From NCBI GenBank assembly GCA_963663165.1, contig OY760175.1, positions 3,328,001-3,392,000 of the forward strand: a stretch of 64,000 bases of DNA. Reading direction: 5' to 3'. Of the stretch, positions 4,077 to 14,782 are shown in pieces; the first letter of the stretch is position 1; every line of letters begins with the position of its first letter. The DNA is from an uncultured Desulfospira sp. (lineage in GTDB: Bacteria > Desulfobacterota > Desulfobacteria > Desulfobacterales > Desulfobacteraceae). Both the position numbers and the translations under genes were made by a program. The notes below the pieces were generated by a model. It did not search any database, had not been told where the DNA came from, and was given only the letters and a program-made list of their open reading frames with translations.

Positions 4077-5333
4077 ATGTTCAGAAAAAATATTGTTCTA
4101 AATTTTATTTTAATTGCAGGCCTTTGTGCCATGATGCTTCAATTTTACGGCTGCAGCGGAATGATGAAAGCAAACCATTTGATTGCGCAGGAAAAATATG
4201 ATGAAGCCATACCGGTCTTGAAAGAACAGATCGCCGAAAACCCGGACTCTGTCCAAGCAAAAAACAGGCTTGGATTTGCCTATTTAAAAACCGGCCGGAT
4301 GGATGAGGCCATTCAGGAATTTGAGGAGGTTTTAAATTTATCACCTGGCGAACCCGAGGCTGTTTTATACCTGGGAATGGCCTATCTGAATAAGGAAGAG
4401 CTGGACAAGGCCATAGACACCTGGCAGGGATACAGAAATGACAAAGCGCCCCTGGTAGAAGAAGAAATTAACCGCCTGATGACCATCCTGCTCATCGCCC
4501 AGAGTCAACAGTCGGCCAAGACAGCCATTGCACAGGAGTCTCAGCTGAGCGCTAAAAAGGCTGATGCCAATTCAATTGCCGTGTGTTATTTCAACGACCT
4601 TTCAGCAGACAAATCCCTGGGGGCTTTCCAGAAAGGCCTGGCCGCAATGGTCACCACAGATCTATCCAAACTTGGAAAATTTAAAGTCGTTGAGCGCCTG
4701 CGCCTTCAGGCGTTGCTGCAGGAAATGAAATTGGGACAAACCGGTATCGTTGACCCAAGTACGGCCCCGAGAATCGGAAAGCTTCTCGGCACCGAAACCC
4801 TGGTGACGGGGAACCTGTCTTTAGGCAGCATCCGGGTGGTCACCTCCTTGTCCTCCTCAAGCAGAGAAAAAGTGGTGGGATCTGCCAATATCAGGGTGGC
4901 CCAGGAAGATTTTTATAACCTGCCGGGACAGATTATCCAGAACTGTGCCGATATTCTCGGAATAAAGTTGAATGCCATGGAGCAGAAAGCCATCCATGTG
5001 CCCCATACAAAAGTTTATAAGGCGTTTATTCACTATGGCCAGGCCATTGATGCTTTGGATGCCGGGAAGTGGCAGGATGCCAAAAACTTTTTTGAAATGG
5101 CGTTAAAAGCAGACCCCAATTTCGATCTTGCCAAAATGGGAAGTGATTCATGTCCTGGACCTGCCGCACCTGGAGTGAATGCCATCAGCGCGATGACGGT
5201 TTCCAATATCGCACAACAGGCTGCGACTTCGGTCTCTACGGCTGAAGAAGCACAGGAAAGTGCGAATTCCGAGGCCAGCGGCTCCGGCGGGTTCGGCTCA
5301 AGCGACAGCGATGGCGGTGGAGGATCATATTGA
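4077..5333 (+). CDS. TPR-repeat lipoprotein with CsgG/FlgO-like domain
   Basis: Lipobox-like 'FYGC', TPR helices, 'IAVCYF..GLAAMVTTDL..FKVVER..L..LLQEMKLGQTG.VD..TA..IGKLLG' CsgG/FlgO signature. Confidence 0.8.
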   Translation: MFRKNIVLNFILIAGLCAMMLQFYGCSGMMKANHLIAQEKYDEAIPVLKEQIAENPDSVQAKNRLGFAYLKTGRMDEAIQEFEEVLNLSPGEPEAVLYLGMAYLNKEELDKAIDTWQGYRNDKAPLVEEEINRLMTILLIAQSQQSAKTAIAQESQLSAKKADANSIAVCYFNDLSADKSLGAFQKGLAAMVTTDLSKLGKFKVVERLRLQALLQEMKLGQTGIVDPSTAPRIGKLLGTETLVTGNLSLGSIRVVTSLSSSSREKVVGSANIRVAQEDFYNLPGQIIQNCADILGIKLNAMEQKAIHVPHTKVYKAFIHYGQAIDALDAGKWQDAKNFFEMALKADPNFDLAKMGSDSCPGPAAPGVNAISAMTVSNIAQQAATSVSTAEEAQESANSEASGSGGFGSSDSDGGGGSY

Positions 5334-5453
5334 TCCCTTTTGTACCGTCAATACGGTTTTGATCATGAATATTTAACATAAAGGCAGGGCCGGTTGTTTC
5401 AAGGCCTTGCCTTAGACATCAGGCCTGTCAAGAAAAATAGAGGAGAGCTGTTT

Positions 5454-6173
5454 ATGAAAATTATCAGTAAGACTGTGACCATGGCAGTGATGGCCGTGCT
5501 TCTGGCAGCATCCGGATGGATCGATGCCGCAGGGGCGGGCACCGTCGGGTCCGGTAATACTGAGGGCGGCCAATCCGTTGAAACGCTGGCTATTTTACCC
5601 TTTGAAAATAATTCCGTGACTGACCCTGACCGATACGCTCCTCTGAGTAAGGGGCTTTCAGCCATGCTGATAACCGATCTTAACAAAAACGCGCCGTCCA
5701 TGAAGCTGATTGAACGCGGAAAGATAGCGGCCCTGTTAAAGGAGGTCGCCTTAAGCCAGAGCGGCGCCGTAGATGATTCCACCGCCGTCCAGGCGGGGAA
5801 AGTTTTAGGGGCCCAGTGTATTGCCTTTGGCTCATTTATGGTCATCGGCAAACAGGTCCGCATTGACACCAGGATCATCAAGGTTGAAACCTCGGCACTG
5901 GTGATGGCTGAATCCATCAGCGGAAAATGCAATGACTTTATGACCCTTGAGCAGGATCTGGCCAAAAAGATCGCAGACTCCTTCAACGTGGGGTTAAACA
6001 CGAAAGACATGAAGTCCGGCAGTGACATTGAAGCGGCGCTTTATTTCTCAGAAGGGCTGGACCTGCTGGATAAAGGGGACAAGGCCGGGGCCAAAAAAAT
6101 GTTCAAAGAATGTATTAAGCTGGATCCCGCTTATAAATCGCAAGTGGACAATGCACAGGGCCAAAAGCTATGA
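5454..6173 (+). CDS. CsgG/HfaB/FlgO-fold periplasmic protein with C-terminal TPR
   Basis: 'LAILPFEN..GLSAMLITDL..LIER..LLKEVALSQSG.VD..TAVQAGKVLGA'; start reset to ATG 5454 after AGGAG RBS. Confidence 0.8.
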   Translation: MKIISKTVTMAVMAVLLAASGWIDAAGAGTVGSGNTEGGQSVETLAILPFENNSVTDPDRYAPLSKGLSAMLITDLNKNAPSMKLIERGKIAALLKEVALSQSGAVDDSTAVQAGKVLGAQCIAFGSFMVIGKQVRIDTRIIKVETSALVMAESISGKCNDFMTLEQDLAKKIADSFNVGLNTKDMKSGSDIEAALYFSEGLDLLDKGDKAGAKKMFKECIKLDPAYKSQVDNAQGQKL

Positions 6174-7300
6174 AAAAAATACTGTTAATCATCCTGTTTA
6201 TTATGTCTGCTTTTTGTTTGTCCACCGGGGTGCAGGCCGGTGATAAAGTTGTCGAGGCGGAAGGAAGCAGCGATTTATCCCGTGATGATGCGGCCCGGCG
6301 TGCCATGGTCGCTGCCGTGGAACAGGCCGTCGGGGTATTTGTTCATTCTGAGACTGAAGTGGAGAATTTTGAACTCAAAAAAGATAAAATCCTCTCCCGT
6401 ACACAGGGGTATGTTACCCGTTATGATGTCCTCAAGGAGTGGCAGCAGGACGGTGCTTACAATATCCGCGTAAAAGCCACGGTCTCTTTGGATAAGATCA
6501 AAGACGATCTGATTGCCATGAAAATTCTGCTGGACAGTATGGAACGGCCCAAGCTCATGATCCTGATTGAAGAAAAATATGTGGATATGGGTGATATGGG
6601 CATGCGGTTTGCCGAAACAGAGCTTTCCAATATGTTCGTGGCCAAAGGATTTGATCTGGTGGACAAAGCCCAGATTGAACAGATCCAGTCCATGGACCAG
6701 GCCCGCCAGGCCCTGGCCGGAGAAGCCGATGCGGCCAAACAGCTGGGGTTGCAGTTTGGCGCCCAGTATGTGATTCTGGGGAAAGCGGTTCTTCAGGATG
6801 CGGGGGAAGCTTATCCCGGCAGTGGTCTGAAATCAATTCAGGGCAGTCTTCAGGTAAAGGTTCTTCAAACCCATACCGGACTGATGCTGGGCTCTGCGGT
6901 TAAAACCGGCGTTGCCGCACATATCAGTCCGTTAACCGGGGCAACAAAGGCCATGAAGGATGCCGCCGGCAAAGCAATGGATGAATACCTGCTGGATACC
7001 ATTACCAATTCATTCCAGGATTTTCTCAACAACGGCTCCCCTTTGAAGCTTTATGTCTCCGGGGTTAAATCCTTTCAAACATATAAGCAGGTCGCCGCCG
7101 GTGTTGAATCCCTGGAAAAAATGGTCAGCAGTAAAAAGGACGGCTGGAATAAAGCCGGCGGCGTACTGGTTCTGGACCTTCGGTTTAAAGGCGTCAGTGA
7201 GGAACTGGCCGATCTCCTGGATGGAAAAAAGCTTGCTAAAGGAAGCCTTGAGGTCGTGGACCTGGCACCGGACCGAGTGGATTGCAATTATTTGGAATAA
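6170..7300 (+). CDS. FlgT N-terminal-domain-like secreted protein
   Basis: Signal peptide; 'VEAEG...A.RRA..AVEQAVGVFVHSET.VENF...D.I...TQGYV..Y.VL.E' pattern; overlaps upstream stop (ATGA). Confidence 0.7.
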   Translation: MKKILLIILFIMSAFCLSTGVQAGDKVVEAEGSSDLSRDDAARRAMVAAVEQAVGVFVHSETEVENFELKKDKILSRTQGYVTRYDVLKEWQQDGAYNIRVKATVSLDKIKDDLIAMKILLDSMERPKLMILIEEKYVDMGDMGMRFAETELSNMFVAKGFDLVDKAQIEQIQSMDQARQALAGEADAAKQLGLQFGAQYVILGKAVLQDAGEAYPGSGLKSIQGSLQVKVLQTHTGLMLGSAVKTGVAAHISPLTGATKAMKDAAGKAMDEYLLDTITNSFQDFLNNGSPLKLYVSGVKSFQTYKQVAAGVESLEKMVSSKKDGWNKAGGVLVLDLRFKGVSEELADLLDGKKLAKGSLEVVDLAPDRVDCNYLE

Positions 7301-7387: not shown

Positions 7388-7789
7388 ATGATCAAGTTGA
7401 TAAAAATTGTGAGTTTTCTCCTATTGGGTTGTCTTTATCTTTCCTGCACGGCTGCGGCTGGAACAAGCCGGTTCTCCAGCCCGCCTAAAACAGTAAAACC
7501 CATTCAATATGAAGTCAGTGATTTATCGGCCAATACCTTTTCAAACAACACCCTTTTGCACGTTTCAGGAAAAATCAAGAACACCTCTTTTTACCCCATA
7601 CAAGGATATGTCATCATTCGGTTTCAAGATATCGGCCATTCGAATCTGGGATATGTAGAAGCAGACTTGAATCAGAACCGCCTTTTGCAGCACAACGAAT
7701 TGGGCGACTTTGAAATCAGCGTCAACATTCAAAATGAACCCGATATCCAGTCTGTATCCGTAGAGTTTGTAAGCACCGTGGGCCGCTGA
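7388..7789 (+). CDS. Secreted/lipoprotein with FxLYD-like Ig domain
   Basis: Signal peptide; 'VSGKIKNTS...V.IRFQD' beta-sandwich pattern. Confidence 0.5.
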   Translation: MIKLIKIVSFLLLGCLYLSCTAAAGTSRFSSPPKTVKPIQYEVSDLSANTFSNNTLLHVSGKIKNTSFYPIQGYVIIRFQDIGHSNLGYVEADLNQNRLLQHNELGDFEISVNIQNEPDIQSVSVEFVSTVGR

Positions 7790-7810: not shown

Positions 7811-9307
7811 TTAGTGTTGAAATTTCAGGGATCGGTCTGAAGAAATTTTATACTTTTTGAGAATTCTTTCGTTGGATTCTTCTACCGCGGTTTTGTTTAA
7901 AACGATTTTAAAGCCTCGGATATCTTCAATCACATGATAATCCTCATCCCACTGCTCAAAAGCCCTTATCAAATCCTCAAGGGTGGCGATGGGCTGCCCG
8001 TTGACCTTTGAAATGATGCCGTTGATAAATTCATGATATCCGATATTGACATCATCGGGCAGGACCTGGGCCAGCATTACGATATCTTTCTGGCGTTTGC
8101 TGGGGACGCCGTTATAAAACAGGTTTAACAGTTCGGTGGGGGCATTTAAATAGAAGTCCCCGTCACCGCTGCCGTATTCGTAAAGGTAATTCATGGACAG
8201 TGCCTCAAACACCAGGCCGCCGATAATATAAAATTCCGGTTCTGTTTCGTATTGCCGGTAAGGAACAAGACGGCAGCAATGAAGGGCTTTGGTTAACGGC
8301 AGTGTGATGGACAGACGTTTTCCCTTTCTAAACACATCAAGAGAAACTGAATCGTTGATCTGCTTTTCCTGGATCACAAAGCCCAGATAGGTTCTTTCCC
8401 CTTTCCTGAATTCAATGGTACCGTCATTGTCAATATCAAAGTCATCAATTTTTAACAGCACATCACTGTCTTCAAGATACCCCAGGGCAGGCGAATTCGG
8501 ATAAATAGCGTTCACCAGAACACCGGTCTGGGTATCGCTCATTTGATAGAATTCCCTCATGTCCTGATTTTCCAGTTTCTGCATGGAGATTCCTAGTTCA
8601 GGAATGCCGTCCAGATGATTGTCGGCAATATCTTCAAGAAAATGGCGCACCACCGGAATGGGGATCATAAAGCCGATATTCTCCGTTTGAGGGCCATAAT
8701 GATTCTGGAAGGCAATGCCCGCAATTTTTCCATCTTTGAAAATAGGCCCCCCGCTGTTCCCATGGTTGAGGGATGCGTCCAGCTGGCAGGCGATCAGGTA
8801 AGATCCGGCATGTTTATAATTTTTATGCTCCACCCGTGAGACCACTCCCTTTGTAATGGAAAGTTTGTCTCCGCCTTCGGGAAACCCATAGGCATAGACC
8901 TCATCCTTAACCTGGGAAAACTCACCGAATTCGATAGGAACAATGCCTTTGAAAAAACCAGGATCATTCACTTTGAGAAGTGCCAGATCACTTTTATGAT
9001 CAATTAGATCAACCACTGCGGTATACCGCTTGGCCTGCCCTGATTTTCTGACCTGTAAAAATGTATTGTCGCAGACCACATGGGCGTTGGTAAGAATTCG
9101 ATTGCCGTCGATGATCACGCCGGACCCATGGCGTGAATTAATGCCTTTCATCTGCCAGGGTTCATGGTAGTTGTACTCATTAAACACCACATAAATTTTG
9201 ACAACGGTATCTTTTTCTCCGGCAAATACTGAGGCGGCGGGAATGGTGCTGCATACCATGAACCATGTCAGAAAAACCCATTTTAATCCGGCCATGGGGT
9301 TATTCAA
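7811..9307 (-). CDS. DegP/HtrA-type serine protease with PDZ domains (Deg2/Deg9-like)
   Basis: Catalytic triad motifs 'ILTNAHVV', 'SDLALL', 'LNHGNSGGP'; signal peptide. Confidence 0.92.
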   Translation of the reverse strand: MNNPMAGLKWVFLTWFMVCSTIPAASVFAGEKDTVVKIYVVFNEYNYHEPWQMKGINSRHGSGVIIDGNRILTNAHVVCDNTFLQVRKSGQAKRYTAVVDLIDHKSDLALLKVNDPGFFKGIVPIEFGEFSQVKDEVYAYGFPEGGDKLSITKGVVSRVEHKNYKHAGSYLIACQLDASLNHGNSGGPIFKDGKIAGIAFQNHYGPQTENIGFMIPIPVVRHFLEDIADNHLDGIPELGISMQKLENQDMREFYQMSDTQTGVLVNAIYPNSPALGYLEDSDVLLKIDDFDIDNDGTIEFRKGERTYLGFVIQEKQINDSVSLDVFRKGKRLSITLPLTKALHCCRLVPYRQYETEPEFYIIGGLVFEALSMNYLYEYGSGDGDFYLNAPTELLNLFYNGVPSKRQKDIVMLAQVLPDDVNIGYHEFINGIISKVNGQPIATLEDLIRAFEQWDEDYHVIEDIRGFKIVLNKTAVEESNERILKKYKISSDRSLKFQH

Positions 9308-9596
9308 TCTGGATAAAGGGCTTCTTTAAGTGATTAATAAAGATGACGGATTCATGTTCTGATTTGATCAGTCGGCTGTATACGGTTTTTGTCTCGCCGG
9401 TGGCGGTATCAATTACAAATGCGCCCACCAGAGCGCCGCCGTCCACAGGGGCCGTGGCCCACGACTGGAGTTGAAACCGTCCGTAATGGGGTGGCGGCGG
9501 CGAGTTTACCGCACCAAGAAAAAGGATGCCAAGCACCGTCAGACCAATCCCAAGCATAAAATATTGAGCCGGTTTGTTAAAATTAGGGAATTTCAT
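9300..9596 (-). CDS. Small membrane-anchored hypothetical protein
   Basis: N-terminal TM, 'GRFQL', 'FVIDTATGETK'; coupled to neighbours, RBS present. Confidence 0.6.
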   Translation of the reverse strand: MKFPNFNKPAQYFMLGIGLTVLGILFLGAVNSPPPPHYGRFQLQSWATAPVDGGALVGAFVIDTATGETKTVYSRLIKSEHESVIFINHLKKPFIQIE

Positions 9597-9621
9597 GGAA
9601 CCTTCCTAAAAAAAATATCCA

Positions 9622-10356
9622 TTATTTCTTTGCCTTTGCAAAATCATCTTTAGAGGCACCGAAACCCTGGACTTCAATCACAGCATCGGGAATGCCAAGG
9701 TCTTTTCCAAGGATATTGGTGGCGTCAGCCACATTAAGCACCATGTTCACGAAGGCATCTCCGTTTTCTTCCCATCCGTAATCAGAGACTTCTGCAAGGT
9801 ACAATGTTGCCAGCAGTTTGGTTTTGACAATATCGGATTTGAGCAGATAGTTATCAACGCTTGTTTTGGATTCAACCTGCATACCGACCAGTCGTTTGCC
9901 AAGTTCCTTGTAAGCGTCAATTTCCGCCGCCCTTAGTGCGGCAACGGCCCCGGCATTTTTCTGGGTTGAAGTCCCGTACCCGACACGCCTGAACACCTTA
10001 TTTCCCAGATTCATCTGTTCGCCGTCAATATTTTCCATGGACGAAAGTTGGACACAGGCTTCAACTTTGGCAATATCTTTTTTGGAATCATAAACGATAT
10101 TGGTATACTGTATATTTTTTATGAATCCTTCGGTTTTGGTTTCGGTCGTGCTTTGATAATTGGCTGCAATCATGTTTTCTACAGACTCAGTCGCCCTGAT
10201 TTTAAGTCCGTATATGGACTCCACCAAAGAACGGGATGCGACCGCTTTGGCGGCCATGATGCTCATCAGTCTCTTATTTCCCGCCAGGGCAGGCGAAAAA
10301 CAGCCGGATACCAGAACCGATACGATCAGCATCGTTATTGTCTTTTTTTTCATCAT
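9622..10356 (-). CDS. LPP20/FlgP-like exported protein (two LPP20-like segments)
   Basis: 'AAKAVASRSLVESIYGLKI..TESVEN' and 'ALRAAEIDAYKELGKRLVGMQVESKTSVDNY' repeats; signal peptide. Confidence 0.7.
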   Translation of the reverse strand: MMKKKTITMLIVSVLVSGCFSPALAGNKRLMSIMAAKAVASRSLVESIYGLKIRATESVENMIAANYQSTTETKTEGFIKNIQYTNIVYDSKKDIAKVEACVQLSSMENIDGEQMNLGNKVFRRVGYGTSTQKNAGAVAALRAAEIDAYKELGKRLVGMQVESKTSVDNYLLKSDIVKTKLLATLYLAEVSDYGWEENGDAFVNMVLNVADATNILGKDLGIPDAVIEVQGFGASKDDFAKAKK

Positions 10357-10394
10357 GAATGACTCCGCCTTCACTTAAATTGGTTACGCAATGG

Positions 10395-10682
10395 TTATGG
10401 GTTTTTCTTTTCTATATCCTCTGTTCTCGGTCCCGTTTCGATGGTTTTTTCTATAATTTTAACTTTGGGGCCGTTTTCCCCTTCTTTCACATGGGCTTTG
10501 TATTCAATGGTCCCATATTGGGGAATATCAGGAAATTCTTTAATAATATCCTTATTGAGCTGGTCTATATCTTCCACCCGTTGTTCAACATGTTCTTTGT
10601 TGCCGGCCCAAAGCGTCATGGAAAAAGGGCCGGTAGCCAGAACAAAAATCAGGGCCATGATAAATGAGCGATATTTTCCCAT
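10395..10682 (-). CDS. Small secreted hypothetical protein
   Basis: Starts 5 nt after the CsgG-like stop; signal peptide 'FIMALIFVLATGPFSMTLWA', charged mature part. Confidence 0.6.
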   Translation of the reverse strand: MGKYRSFIMALIFVLATGPFSMTLWAGNKEHVEQRVEDIDQLNKDIIKEFPDIPQYGTIEYKAHVKEGENGPKVKIIEKTIETGPRTEDIEKKNP

Positions 10683-10686
10683 GGAT

Positions 10687-12039
10687 TTACCATTCGTCAT
10701 CGCTGAGCATTCTTCCAATACCGGCTCCCGCTTTGATTGCCGGCTTGGGCTGGCTCTTGCTTCCAGGGGATGGCGCACTGGCCGCCGGTGGCGGTGGCTG
10801 GCTTTTGCTGGATGAAGAATAGGCTGGCGCACTGGTGGAGGCGGCCGCGGCACTGGTTGCTGATGGTGCCGGAGGACTTGATTCTACCGGCTGTTGAACC
10901 GTTCCGCCCGCCAGAAGATTGTTCAACTGATATCGCCGTGACAGGGCGGCTTCAGTGATGGGGATTTTTTCATATATGGTCATGAACGTCTTAAAATCAA
11001 CCGTACCCGATGCCGGTGAAAAAGAGGAAGAAATGGATTGAAAGGCCTTGATGGTGGCGGCATCAAGCTGGCCGCTCAAGGGCACGTTATGCCCGTATAA
11101 ATAGGCCCACTGCTGGGCCGCCATGATCTGCTCTGCCGGATTGATGCTGTGGTAATACCGTTTAATCTGCCTGACAACAACCGAATCCGGGGTGGTATCC
11201 TCTCCTAAAAGTGTCCAGTAGGGAAGTGCCAGGTACTTTCCAACCATCTGGATCATGCTGACTTCCACGAGCACCCGGACGGCGGCATGCCGGCCCTGGA
11301 CCTTTTTAACTGACCCCTTTGATCCAAAGGTAGGGCCAAACAGGGTGATGCCGAACTCTTTTTCCTGAAGCGCTTTGCGGACCTCCATACTGTTGATGGT
11401 GTTCATCCGGGGGATGCCAGCCATGGTTTTAAAATCCAGCATGTTAAAATCCAGGGTAATTCTGGCCAGTCCCTGTTTTTCGCTGTCACTGTAATTCAGG
11501 CCCACAGACCCGCTCGGGGTAAAGCTAGGGGCGTTGCTGAAGGTGGCATCCACGCCAAGATCCGTCCCCTCTCCTCTGGTTTCAAGGCCCCGGTCAAATT
11601 CCGTGATCCCCCCGCTGATCACCACCTCGGGAATCAGTTTATCTGAGAAGTCCGAATACCCTGTCACGTTCATGTTCTGGATATAGGCAGGATCGTAGGG
11701 GATATACCGGATATTGCCGCCGATGGAGTTCAGGGCGCTTTTCAGTATTTCTGTAATATCCCGGGGGATTTCCCCCCCTGTTGCCCCGGATGTTCCCGTG
11801 TTGTCCCCGATGGGGTCACTTTGTATTTTCAGCTCTCCCGTATCAAAAATTTCGGTCATCAAACCCAGATCAATCAACGTTTCTGTGTAAGATGTCATTT
11901 TGACTTCAGGACTTGATTCCTCCAATTGGACATTCACTTTGGTTGGCGAAGAGACGCACCCGCTCATTGTTATGCTGATAAATACGACGCATAGTCCTAT
12001 TATCAGCCGCCCTTCCAGCCTTCTAAATCCTTTCATCAT
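10687..12039 (-). CDS. CsgG/HfaB-family outer-membrane lipoprotein with putative peptidoglycan-binding domain and Pro/Ala/Ser tail
   Basis: Lipobox 'MSGC'; 'IGDNTG..GGEIP..ILKSAL', 'ISGGITEFD', 'ITLDF', 'AVRVLVE...VGK...PYW'; 'SGQLDAATIKAFQ' PG-binding-like segment. Confidence 0.75.
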   Translation of the reverse strand: MMKGFRRLEGRLIIGLCVVFISITMSGCVSSPTKVNVQLEESSPEVKMTSYTETLIDLGLMTEIFDTGELKIQSDPIGDNTGTSGATGGEIPRDITEILKSALNSIGGNIRYIPYDPAYIQNMNVTGYSDFSDKLIPEVVISGGITEFDRGLETRGEGTDLGVDATFSNAPSFTPSGSVGLNYSDSEKQGLARITLDFNMLDFKTMAGIPRMNTINSMEVRKALQEKEFGITLFGPTFGSKGSVKKVQGRHAAVRVLVEVSMIQMVGKYLALPYWTLLGEDTTPDSVVVRQIKRYYHSINPAEQIMAAQQWAYLYGHNVPLSGQLDAATIKAFQSISSSFSPASGTVDFKTFMTIYEKIPITEAALSRRYQLNNLLAGGTVQQPVESSPPAPSATSAAAASTSAPAYSSSSKSQPPPPAASAPSPGSKSQPKPAIKAGAGIGRMLSDDEW

Positions 12040-12166
12040 AATTCGCTCCTCAGTCCGACCTTGTTTTAATTGTAATATTGAGGTTTTTCACTAGAACCCA
12101 GACCAGCTATTGTGTTTCGCAAGGGTGTCCCAGGCTGAAATAACAAATGACCCGTTCATAAGAAGC

Positions 12167-12502
12167 CTAATCGGCAACCAGGGTTTTATTCCCCTTACTG
12201 TCGTCAATAATGATAATGTCACCCTTGACGGTACTGCCGGCCCCCATGACAACACTGTTCATGTTTGCGGATTCTGCGCTGCTGCTACCGGTCATGGAAT
12301 CTGCGTTGGTTTGGGCTTTGCTGCGGGCATTCATCTTAATGAAAGTGACGTTTCTATCCTTTTTCCCCAACTCGTCGTATTTTTGAATGGAGTCGTCTGT
12401 ATAAGTTGATATCCCGTCATCAAGATCCCCACTGACAGCAACAACCGGTGCCAGGAATTGAAGCAGGCAAAAAAACATGATTAAAATTTTGATGGATTTC
12501 AT
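12167..12502 (-). CDS. Small secreted protein with one degenerate copy of the 36-aa repeat
   Basis: GGAGG RBS, signal peptide; 'ANMNSVVMGAGSTVKGDIII' resembles 'ANMGSVNVKDSNVKGAVIN' of the upstream gene. Confidence 0.7.
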   Translation of the reverse strand: MKSIKILIMFFCLLQFLAPVVAVSGDLDDGISTYTDDSIQKYDELGKKDRNVTFIKMNARSKAQTNADSMTGSSSAESANMNSVVMGAGSTVKGDIIIIDDSKGNKTLVAD

Positions 12503-12521
12503 TTCAAAATCCTCCCTTATT

Positions 12522-12617
12522 TTATAAGAAAGTCCCACTAACAACTTAAAAAGACTTTCAATATCTATTGCGGACGCTGCTTGGTTGAATAACCACGGCG
12601 GCCCGTGGCCGTTATAA
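12522..12617 (+). repeat. 90-bp REP-like dispersed element, copy 1
   Basis: TTATAAGAAAGTC...AGACTTTC...GCTTGGTTGAATAACCA...CCGTGGCCGTTATAA; TTATAA at both ends. Confidence 0.9.
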
Positions 12618-12801
12618 ACTATCAACGGTAGGCCTGTGACTCACCGTTGAACTGCAGGTATCAAGCCACAGGCCCTGAACTCAAGAAAACGGCCCCAGGG
12701 CAAACAAGCCATAACAGGATTCAGCAGAAAGGCGGTACAAAAACCGATCTGCTGAACCCCTGAATGCTGCTGCCCTGATAATCCGTACAAGTCTGCGCTA
12801 A

Positions 12802-13626
12802 CTATTTGATATCCACAGACCCCATGTTGGCGGTGTTGCCTTTGCCACCGGCAATGTTGGCCGCATTTTCAACATTGGACTGATTGATGACCGCCCCTTT
12901 GACATTGGAATCCTTGACACTGACGGATCCCATGTTGGCGGTATTGTCCTGTCCAACAGCAATGTTGGCCGCATTTTTAACATTGGACTGATTGATGACC
13001 GCCCCTTTGACATTGGATCCCTGGACATTGACAGATCCCATGTTGGCGGTATTGCCCTGGCCTGCGGCAATGTTGGCGGCGTTTTTAACATTGGACTGAT
13101 TGATGACCGCCCCTTTGACATTGGAATCCTTGACATTGACAGACCCCATGTTGGCGGTATTGCCCTGGCCTGCAGCAATGTTGGCCGCATTTTGGACATT
13201 GGATTTATTGATGACCGCGCCCTTGACATTGGATCCCTCGACATTGGTAGACCCCATGTTGGCGGTATTGCCCTGGCCTGCAGCAATGTTGGCCGCATTT
13301 TTAACATTAGACTGATTGATGACCGCCCCTTTGACATTGGAATCCTTGACATTGACAGACCCCATATTGGCCGCATTGTCCTTTCCAGCAGCGATGTTGG
13401 CGGCATTTTCAACATTGGACTTGTTGATTACGGCGCCCTTGACATTGGAGTCCTTAATTTTTACAGATCCCATGTTGGCGGTGTTGTTATCTCCCACAGA
13501 AATGTTGGCGGCATTTTTAACGTCGGATTTGTTGATAACAGCGCCTTTGACATTGGATTCCGCCAGTAAAGTACCCGGCAGCATGACAAACAACGCGATT
13601 AATGACAGTGCAAAAACGTTTTTCAT
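12802..13626 (-). CDS. Secreted tandem-repeat protein (22-aa signal plus 7 x 36-aa repeats), candidate functional amyloid/beta-solenoid fibre subunit
   Basis: Consensus [DG]SNVKGAVIN[KQ]SNVKNAANIAAGQGNTANMGSVNVK; 108-bp DNA periodicity; AAGGAG RBS. Confidence 0.85.
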   Translation of the reverse strand: MKNVFALSLIALFVMLPGTLLAESNVKGAVINKSDVKNAANISVGDNNTANMGSVKIKDSNVKGAVINKSNVENAANIAAGKDNAANMGSVNVKDSNVKGAVINQSNVKNAANIAAGQGNTANMGSTNVEGSNVKGAVINKSNVQNAANIAAGQGNTANMGSVNVKDSNVKGAVINQSNVKNAANIAAGQGNTANMGSVNVQGSNVKGAVINQSNVKNAANIAVGQDNTANMGSVSVKDSNVKGAVINQSNVENAANIAGGKGNTANMGSVDIK

Positions 13627-14044: not shown

Positions 14045-14782
14045 ATGAAATACCGAATTAAAAACAGAGTGTTGCTCATTTTACAGCTTATTTTTATCAG
14101 CAGTCCGGTATGGTTTCCGGTTGCTGCATCCGGCGCCCAAGCGCTTGAGAACTCAACAGGATATCAACTTAGCAGCACCAACCTGGTCCGTACAGATTGT
14201 CTTCAGGGCAACGGAATCCTTAAAAAAGAGAATAGAACCCCCGGTCCGTTCAACAAGGTACACATCAGCGGTGTTTTCAATGTTAAGATCATGCAGCAGG
14301 CCGACCCTTTTTTTGAAATATCCGCAGACGCCAACCTGATTTCAAACATCGAGACCCGTGTTATTGATGGCCAGCTGCAGATTTCTTCAAAAGGCTCTCT
14401 TTGCCCCAAACTGCCCGTCAAAATACAGATCGGTCTGCCCGAACTTGTGGCGCTGCAAGGTGTGGGTGCTGATGATATCAGCGTTTCAAATTTGGATAAT
14501 CAGCAGTTTTCAATCCAGATGGATGGCAGCGGCGATATCAGGGTGACGGGCCGCACCAGAGAATTTCAGGTCATGATGGATGGCGCAGGCAACCTTGATG
14601 CGGGCCAATTCAAGGCCGGCAACGTCTCTATCCGCTCTTCAGGTGCCGGGGATGCACAGATTTTTGCAATAGAAAAAATAGACGCTTATATAGACGGGGC
14701 CGGGGATATCTCACTCCATGGGCAGCCTGAAAAAGTGATTTTCAACTCAGATGGGGTAGGAGAATTAATCCGGGCGGATTAA
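14045..14782 (+). CDS. Head GIN domain (DUF2807) beta-helix protein
   Basis: 'QGNG...E.R..GPFNKV.ISG.F.V' and repeated 'GSGDI/GAGNL/GAGDA/GAGDI' motifs; signal peptide. Confidence 0.85.
   Translation: MKYRIKNRVLLILQLIFISSPVWFPVAASGAQALENSTGYQLSSTNLVRTDCLQGNGILKKENRTPGPFNKVHISGVFNVKIMQQADPFFEISADANLISNIETRVIDGQLQISSKGSLCPKLPVKIQIGLPELVALQGVGADDISVSNLDNQQFSIQMDGSGDIRVTGRTREFQVMMDGAGNLDAGQFKAGNVSIRSSGAGDAQIFAIEKIDAYIDGAGDISLHGQPEKVIFNSDGVGELIRAD

Follow-up and report, generated by a model that had tools for sequence, protein, structure and literature searches.

Among the secreted amyloids of Gram-negative bacteria, curli and Fap serve as the two models. Curlin repeats average 23 ± 5 residues and carry Q/N motifs (PMC10192328), and curli operons vary widely, some of them lacking CsgE and CsgF (PMC3521004; PMC12822426). 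Fap repeats have a length of 39 residues and the minimal motif G-x4-N-x3-G-x6-N (PMC3792158), and Fap is almost always built from three repeats with linkers, together with the FapF barrel and the cysteine protease FapD (PMC12822426). The Caulobacter protein HfaB resembles CsgG and is the putative translocon for the anchor proteins (PMC6707917). Here we describe a gene cluster in a 64,000-nt stretch of DNA (the window) from an uncultured Desulfospira sp. (GCA_963663165.1, contig OY760175.1, positions 3,328,001–3,392,000 of the forward strand; the source genome is 96.7% complete). Its core is three genes: A, which encodes a tandem-repeat protein; B, a small secreted partner; and C, a lipoprotein with a predicted CsgG fold. 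The system is real, conserved and apparently undescribed. It is best read as type VIII-like secretion of subunits that belong to a new family, and its product is probably a surface fibre of a new kind. The original prediction, made from the window's sequence, had likewise not recognized it as a described system, and our literature search found no description of the cluster; most subscription papers lay outside that search, and the NanoporeDB supplement (PMC13397529), with its table of 3,608 CsgG-like proteins, may list relatives of C.

The candidate major subunit, A (window positions 12802–13626, counted from the first letter as position 1; minus strand; 274 aa), has a 22-residue signal peptide and a mature chain of 252 aa, or 7 × 36: one residue is followed by seven repeats spaced exactly 36 residues apart, the last of them one residue short. 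The repeats are 73–93% identical at the DNA level, and neither the N- nor the C-terminus has a cap. As read from the sequence, the C-terminus lacks one position that the residue remaining after cleavage supplies, and stacked copies would therefore continue the helix seamlessly. The AlphaFold2 model (37 sequences) was all-beta, lacked capping helices and had a predicted local distance difference test (pLDDT) score of 96.8, making A a predicted uncapped beta-solenoid, although its handedness should be treated as unreliable, as predicted handedness is where alignments are shallow (PMC10192328). Across 163 repeats from 25 selected proteins, G5, N9, N18 and G22 were invariant, giving Gly and Asn ladder positions as would suit a polymer, and A27 and G30 were 99% conserved; these proteins were chosen as exact multiples of 36, which makes the stop codon at position 36 circular in this set, and it was not used for register. 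A search with the repeat profile gave 276 clusters at 50% identity. The Pfam scan of A gave no family at cut-off, the Atlas search no match ≥0.9 and Foldseek with the A model no match at E ≤ 0.001; weak pentapeptide-repeat and PHROG matches were judged compositional. Compared with the A model, CsgA (8c50) and FapC (9u4u) reached only a Foldseek E of 0.8 and a template modelling (TM) score of ~0.1 and fell outside the top 50 VIA rows, values with which kinship is still compatible. A complex prediction with three copies of A scored 0.33 against a mark of 0.42, which counts neither for nor against stacking.

Features expected of a polymerizing subunit recurred among relatives; of 202 genome loci detected, we compared the 80 best. 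A repeat open reading frame (ORF) lay immediately upstream of B in 68 of the 74 loci that hold B. The C-termini of these 68 subunits fell in a single register (65 by pattern and the remaining 3 by eye), and 27 of the 37 parsed subunits were exact multiples of 36 (two of the 27 anchored on an inner repeat); the other 31, which were truncated, broken or unmatched, were not parsed by pattern. The number of rungs ranged from 2 to 12, and among the 147 representatives listed, 36 were ≤110 aa long with a signal peptide, mostly with two rungs. Two-rung genes led A–B–C operons in two genome loci (G189 and L071) and in 3 of 12 metagenome loci; 5 of the 12 metagenome genes stood alone amid unrelated flanking sequence, and the remaining 4 gave no information. 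A two-rung chain, with both faces exposed, should need stacking for folding. A metagenome scan with one two-rung protein gave no matches. In sludge-type metagenomes (L106–L109 and L112), near-identical two-rung genes occurred as scattered lone copies, including two inverted copies in L106, possibly a gene-dosage expansion.

The A–B spacer holds an RNA stem-loop after the stop codon of A (12696–12778, minus strand; z = −4.55), and none of 100 shuffles was as stable. RNA hairpins with z ≤ −2 within 70 nt followed the subunit gene in 60 of 67 loci, as would be expected for a subunit made in excess, whereas such hairpins followed B in 3 of 67 and C in 5 of 67. The element is probably an attenuator or stabilizer that yields excess A; the promoter scan of the locus was near shuffle level (18 versus 12.7 ± 3.8). 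Together, the register, the variable rung number and the RNA hairpin fit a major subunit that polymerizes head to tail.

Rungs were also found in other proteins, fused to subtilase, FecR-like or DUF2807 domains (P0141, P0154, P0176, P0180 and P0178, the last being DUF2807 joined to three rungs), and the fused domains are possibly cargo displayed on a fibre. Long accessory repeat proteins (576–1302 aa) were encoded upstream of the main subunit in five loci (L018:4685–6415, L020:2656–5256, L037:3236–6154, L064:2460–6368 and L076:3960–6158) and end in a distinct conserved motif that resembles the rung of B. They may be minor or tip subunits, and the window's genome lacks them.

The candidate channel, C (10687–12039, minus strand; 450 aa), is a lipoprotein whose lipobox cysteine (Cys28) was invariant in 65 of 65 aligned relatives. 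Its model contains a CsgG-fold core, two long amphipathic beta-hairpins (~11464–11592 and ~11296–11382) and a short Gly/Thr-rich constriction loop; beyond the core are a helical C-terminal domain, a Pro-rich linker and a conserved acidic-Trp tail. Hydrophobic residues alternate with Gly or polar residues in the hairpin columns. CsgG was the top Foldseek match (E 5.5e-10, 12% identity) and led the VIA ranking with Z 15.2 (root-mean-square deviation (rmsd) 8.9, 213 aligned), ahead of the hairpin-less relatives FlgT (12.4) and PelC (11.5). The original prediction had proposed a CsgG fold with pore hairpins, and the model agrees as to the fold and the two hairpins; the Pfam CsgG score of 18 bits fell under the cut-off of 20.8. 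Pfam CsgG was detected in 32 of 65 family members (E ≤ 0.05) and PG_binding_1 in 18 of 65, and by sequence the C-terminal domain appears peptidoglycan-binding-like in relatives. Against E. coli CsgG, the N-terminal half of C aligned weakly (E 0.003). It is therefore the predicted fold, and not the family score, that marks C as a CsgG-type lipoprotein of the outer membrane with a pair of beta-hairpins. Its constriction loop is five residues shorter than that of E. coli CsgG and lacks the Tyr, Asn and Phe that form the constriction there, suggesting a wider throat.

B (12167–12502, minus strand; 111 aa; 74 of 80 loci) consists of a conserved acidic N-terminal segment and a short amphipathic stretch, followed by a single rung-like segment, and has no Pfam family. 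The prediction of a seven-repeat protein with a one-repeat partner was borne out exactly for A, but for B the C-terminal part only weakly resembled one rung (hhalign E 0.0012, probability 19%, 24 columns). We regard B as a candidate nucleator or anchor. By eye, its short helix shows an N-x-x-F-(I/L)-x-x-x-A pattern as in E. coli CsgF; this likeness was unsupported by a PDB sequence search or by profile comparison (probability 0.4%) and counts only as a lead.

Linkage of the three core genes, which the prediction had taken to be conserved, was far beyond chance. Among the 58 loci with 2 kb of upstream sequence, the repeat gene was present in 55 and B in 55, and a broader profile added one more locus (L082). 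In a sample of 301 genomes of the phylum, the three with a close C, and no others, were matched by the repeat profile, as the proposed link between repeat and CsgG homologs anticipated; two with a distant C were negative, one of which has a diverged two-rung gene beside C. The usual order was A-B-C-(D)-E-F-DUF2807-(protease)-K, and A-B-C also occurred without accessories (for example, G189 and L017). The carriers are sulfate reducers and other bacteria of sediment and sludge, and the record titles of the loci include Desulfobacterales, Desulfuromonadales, Desulfobulbales, Geomonas, Nitrospirota, Sulfurospirillaceae and candidate division FCPU426. A further B-C-D fragment (L066) lay on a 2.4-kb low-coverage contig titled archaeon and is probably misbinned. 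Named relatives of C were 94% identical to it, from an uncultured Desulfospira, and 82%, from an uncultured Desulfobacter. A, B, C, D, F and K are each single-copy in the window's genome.

We favour, with somewhat better than even confidence, a curli-like (type VIII-like) export and assembly pathway for a new family of fibre subunit, a fibre being what the original prediction also suggested; the polymer, the pore and the amyloid nature of the system are inferred. A, B and the accessories, whose signal peptides are seen in the sequence, would cross the inner membrane by Sec. C, once lipidated, would by analogy with CsgG assemble as a ring, each subunit contributing two hairpins to a barrel in the outer membrane, with the C-terminal domain holding the ring to peptidoglycan. 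A would pass unfolded through C and fold outside into its predicted solenoid of 36-residue rungs; because its ends are uncapped and in register, copies could then stack head to tail, and the resulting fibre would be unbranched and probably amyloid-like. B would start and anchor the fibre through its single rung, and the RNA hairpin would supply A in excess. E, D, F, K and the DUF2807 protein would act as optional scaffold, chaperone or tip parts, and the protease G would clear misfolded subunit. The likely role would be attachment, aggregation or biofilm matrix.

Several observations weigh against this reading. The closest structures to the uncapped all-beta model of A were parallel beta-helices of a generic kind (best Z 14.1, rmsd 3.8, 208 aligned), and the model resembles ordinary soluble proteins of this type. 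Ten of the 37 parsed subunits were not exact multiples of 36, and some two-rung forms may be assembly collapses; one (P0164) has ends identical to both ends of the seven-rung protein of L009. C is just 10–12% identical to CsgG, lies below the Pfam cut-off and superposes with an rmsd of 7–9 Å, a search of PDB sequences with its profile found nothing, and the CsgG/TolB-N fold is common to non-pore lipoproteins as well. The loci are related by kinship and not independent, the genome sample holds only three positives, and more distant C relatives (G233, G002 and Azospirillum) can be without a detectable repeat gene.

The alternative that survives best, although we consider it unlikely, is a holdfast-anchor-like apparatus in which C exports A and B as short cell-bound rods or a mesh to which a polysaccharide or tip adhesin is tethered, in the manner of Caulobacter HfaB with HfaA and HfaD. 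HfaB, a CsgG-like putative translocon (PMC6707917), sets a precedent, and the fold of A resembles beta-helical adhesins; B could cap A, and the long accessory repeat proteins, with their distinct end motif, could be finite stalks. The HfaA (NF037934) and HfaB (NF037935) models, however, matched nothing in the genome while the Caulobacter control was positive, both ends of A are in register instead of capped, rung number varies between 2 and 12, and the RNA hairpin implies that A is in excess over B and C. Somewhat less probable still is an envelope scaffold, in which C is a non-pore ring lipoprotein of the FlgT or PelC kind and A polymerizes or acts in the periplasm together with the LPP20-like protein E. 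In flagellar motors, proteins of the LPP20/SHS2 fold build rings associated with the outer membrane (PMC12222027). C carries a peptidoglycan-binding-like domain, a periplasmic protease recurs, and all parts carry only Sec or lipoprotein signals. Yet both long amphipathic hairpins are retained in C, its structural matches put CsgG ahead of FlgT and PelC, and E is missing from minimal A-B-C loci.

Judged by sequence, the system is neither curli nor Fap; in its proposed workings it resembles curli, but it did not qualify as a member of curli, Fap or Hfa. The curlin motif Q-x-G-x-x-N was absent from A and had 2 matches in 716 repeats (97 ORFs), and the minimal Fap motif had 1 match in the same 716. 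Curlin (PF07012; E. coli control positive), CsgE and CsgF (controls positive) were not found in the genome, in agreement with the predicted absence of csgE and csgF, and the repeat gave no profile match to E. coli CsgA. FapF and FapD were not found by Pfam/NCBIfam scans, a search limited to the seven locus proteins. The label 'Fap-like' therefore holds for a short N-x-A-x-G core but not for the minimal Fap motif or for the contiguous, linker-free rungs, and the NQQ motif named in the original prediction is absent from A. That the cluster is instead a far-diverged branch of the curli or Fap family and no separate system, as its csgA/csgB/csgG-like gene logic, curli operons without CsgE and CsgF (PMC3521004; PMC12822426) and the Fap-like core might suggest, is improbable given these motif and profile results and its nearly Q-free rungs of 36 residues, compared with 23 ± 5 for curlin (PMC10192328).

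As predicted, the region 7811–13626 holds seven co-oriented minus-strand ORFs, each with a hydrophobic N-terminal export or anchor segment; the genes within it are real, but the span proved too narrow, as two recurring partners, a DUF2807 gene and K, lie just outside it and are part of the system. D (10395–10682, minus strand; 95 aa; 43 of 80 loci, and 32 of the 62 with 6 kb of downstream sequence) is an optional secreted protein of no known family. E (9622–10356, minus strand; 244 aa; 68 of 80 and 54 of 62) is a secreted, internally duplicated protein with two LPP20-like halves and one weak second match in the genome (E 0.007). It had no Pfam match, and its LPP20-like label accords with its nearest Atlas cluster (score 0.96; PF02169 on 64% of members). 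E is not a lipoprotein because its Cys is not conserved; it was present in close form in two of the three carrier genomes of the 301-genome sample and is a candidate periplasmic ring or scaffold. The mature chains of D and E both start with a G-N-K motif, and their N-termini align (hhalign probability 90%, 27 columns including the signal peptide), possibly reflecting a shared docking or targeting signal.

F (9300–9596, minus strand; 98 aa; 53 of 80 and 44 of 62) combines an N-terminal hydrophobic segment with a conserved small beta-rich domain. G (7811–9295, minus strand; 19 of 80 and 18 of 62) is, as labelled from sequence, an HtrA/DegP-type protease with trypsin, PDZ and PDZ_3 domains and catalytic motifs present. 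The idea that the system has its own protease is weakened: close relatives of G occurred in 15 of the 301 sampled genomes, only 2 of them with the system and 13 without, and one complete genome carrying A-B-C has no G-like protease. These figures indicate a recruited, not dedicated, protease and make G a recurring but optional accessory. The DUF2807 (GIN beta-helix) secreted protein is encoded divergently in the window (14045–14782, plus strand; 42 of 80 and 36 of 62), whereas in relatives its gene usually directly follows F on the operon strand; DUF2807 was found in 4 of the 301 genomes, twice at this system. K (7388–7789, plus strand; 24 of 80 and 21 of 62) is a convergent gene for a secreted beta-rich protein of 133 aa.

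Further out, a convergent plus-strand block (4077–7300) holds a tetratricopeptide-repeat (TPR) lipoprotein that carries the N-terminal half of Pfam CsgG, another protein of this kind and the loosely linked J, a FlgT_N/LipL46-like secreted protein (6170–7300, plus strand; 9 of 80 and 9 of 62). The first two genes (4077–6173), which match the N-terminal half only, recurred in 4–5 of 80 loci and were excluded as members. Two further Pfam CsgG-family genes lie elsewhere in the genome (C1:4136471–4136950 and 6577749–6578255) with no repeat gene nearby. Distant C relatives in three loci (L096:7502–9627, L097:5829–10901 and L098:7733–11156) precede a 660–760-aa ORF, which in L097 had no Pfam match and lies near a diverged two-rung gene; these loci are possibly a sister system. 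In L047, L068, L071, L073 and L078, a recurring block beside the operon comprised an unassigned 220–270-aa ORF, a J-like gene and an unassigned 250–290-aa ORF, with more lipoproteins of CsgG-like appearance in G167. In Desulfobulbales-type loci (L039, L049, L058, L064 and L085) genes for an outer-membrane efflux protein, a membrane-fusion protein and an ABC gene followed K.

A bolder proposal, to which we give slightly less than even weight, is that the cluster represents a third dedicated Gram-negative functional-amyloid system beside curli and Fap. It would export a 36-residue-rung fibre through a wider, peptidoglycan-tethered CsgG-type pore, B would double as pore anchor, like CsgF, and nucleator, like CsgB, and rung tags would build enzymes or binding domains (subtilase, FecR-like, DUF2807) into the fibre. 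Recent genome surveys use curli and Fap profiles only (PMC12822426) and would therefore miss this system. If fibres are made, sulfate reducers, iron reducers, Nitrospirota and sludge bacteria would have in A a matrix protein open to testing, and databases name cultured carriers (Geomonas sp. Red32, Desulfuromonas thiophila, Trichloromonas acetexigens and Desulfobacula phenolica). It would also follow that CsgG-type pores can pass a larger solenoid that is unrelated. For those developing nanopores and materials, the differently constricted CsgG-type channel and the very regular self-stacking protein may also be of interest.

Compared with known systems, several relatives of C are labelled 'DUF4384 domain-containing', and some are fused to DUF4384 or TPR; C itself lacks the DUF4384 domain, the label gives no function, and the Azospirillum member has no detectable repeat neighbour. 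Like Hfa, the cluster has no CsgE or CsgF and sets a lipoprotein resembling CsgG next to secreted partners that may be amyloid-like, but its subunit is a predicted regular tandem solenoid of variable length. It shares with Fap an associated protease and a repeat of similar length that has an N-x-A-x-G core and abundant Asn, Ala and Gly, and differs in having 2–12 contiguous rungs (seven in A), a CsgG-type channel and an optional trypsin-type serine protease. In contrast to curli, the rungs of A span 36 residues, are nearly Q-free at conserved sites and lack curlin motifs, C has an added peptidoglycan-binding-like domain and a constriction loop five residues shorter, and the accessories are LPP20-like, DUF2807 and HtrA proteins. 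What it has in common with curli is a predicted CsgG-fold lipoprotein with two hairpins, a Sec-exported repeat subunit of variable repeat number, modelled as an uncapped beta-solenoid, and a small partner whose repeat appears related, a gene logic that parallels csgA/csgB/csgG.

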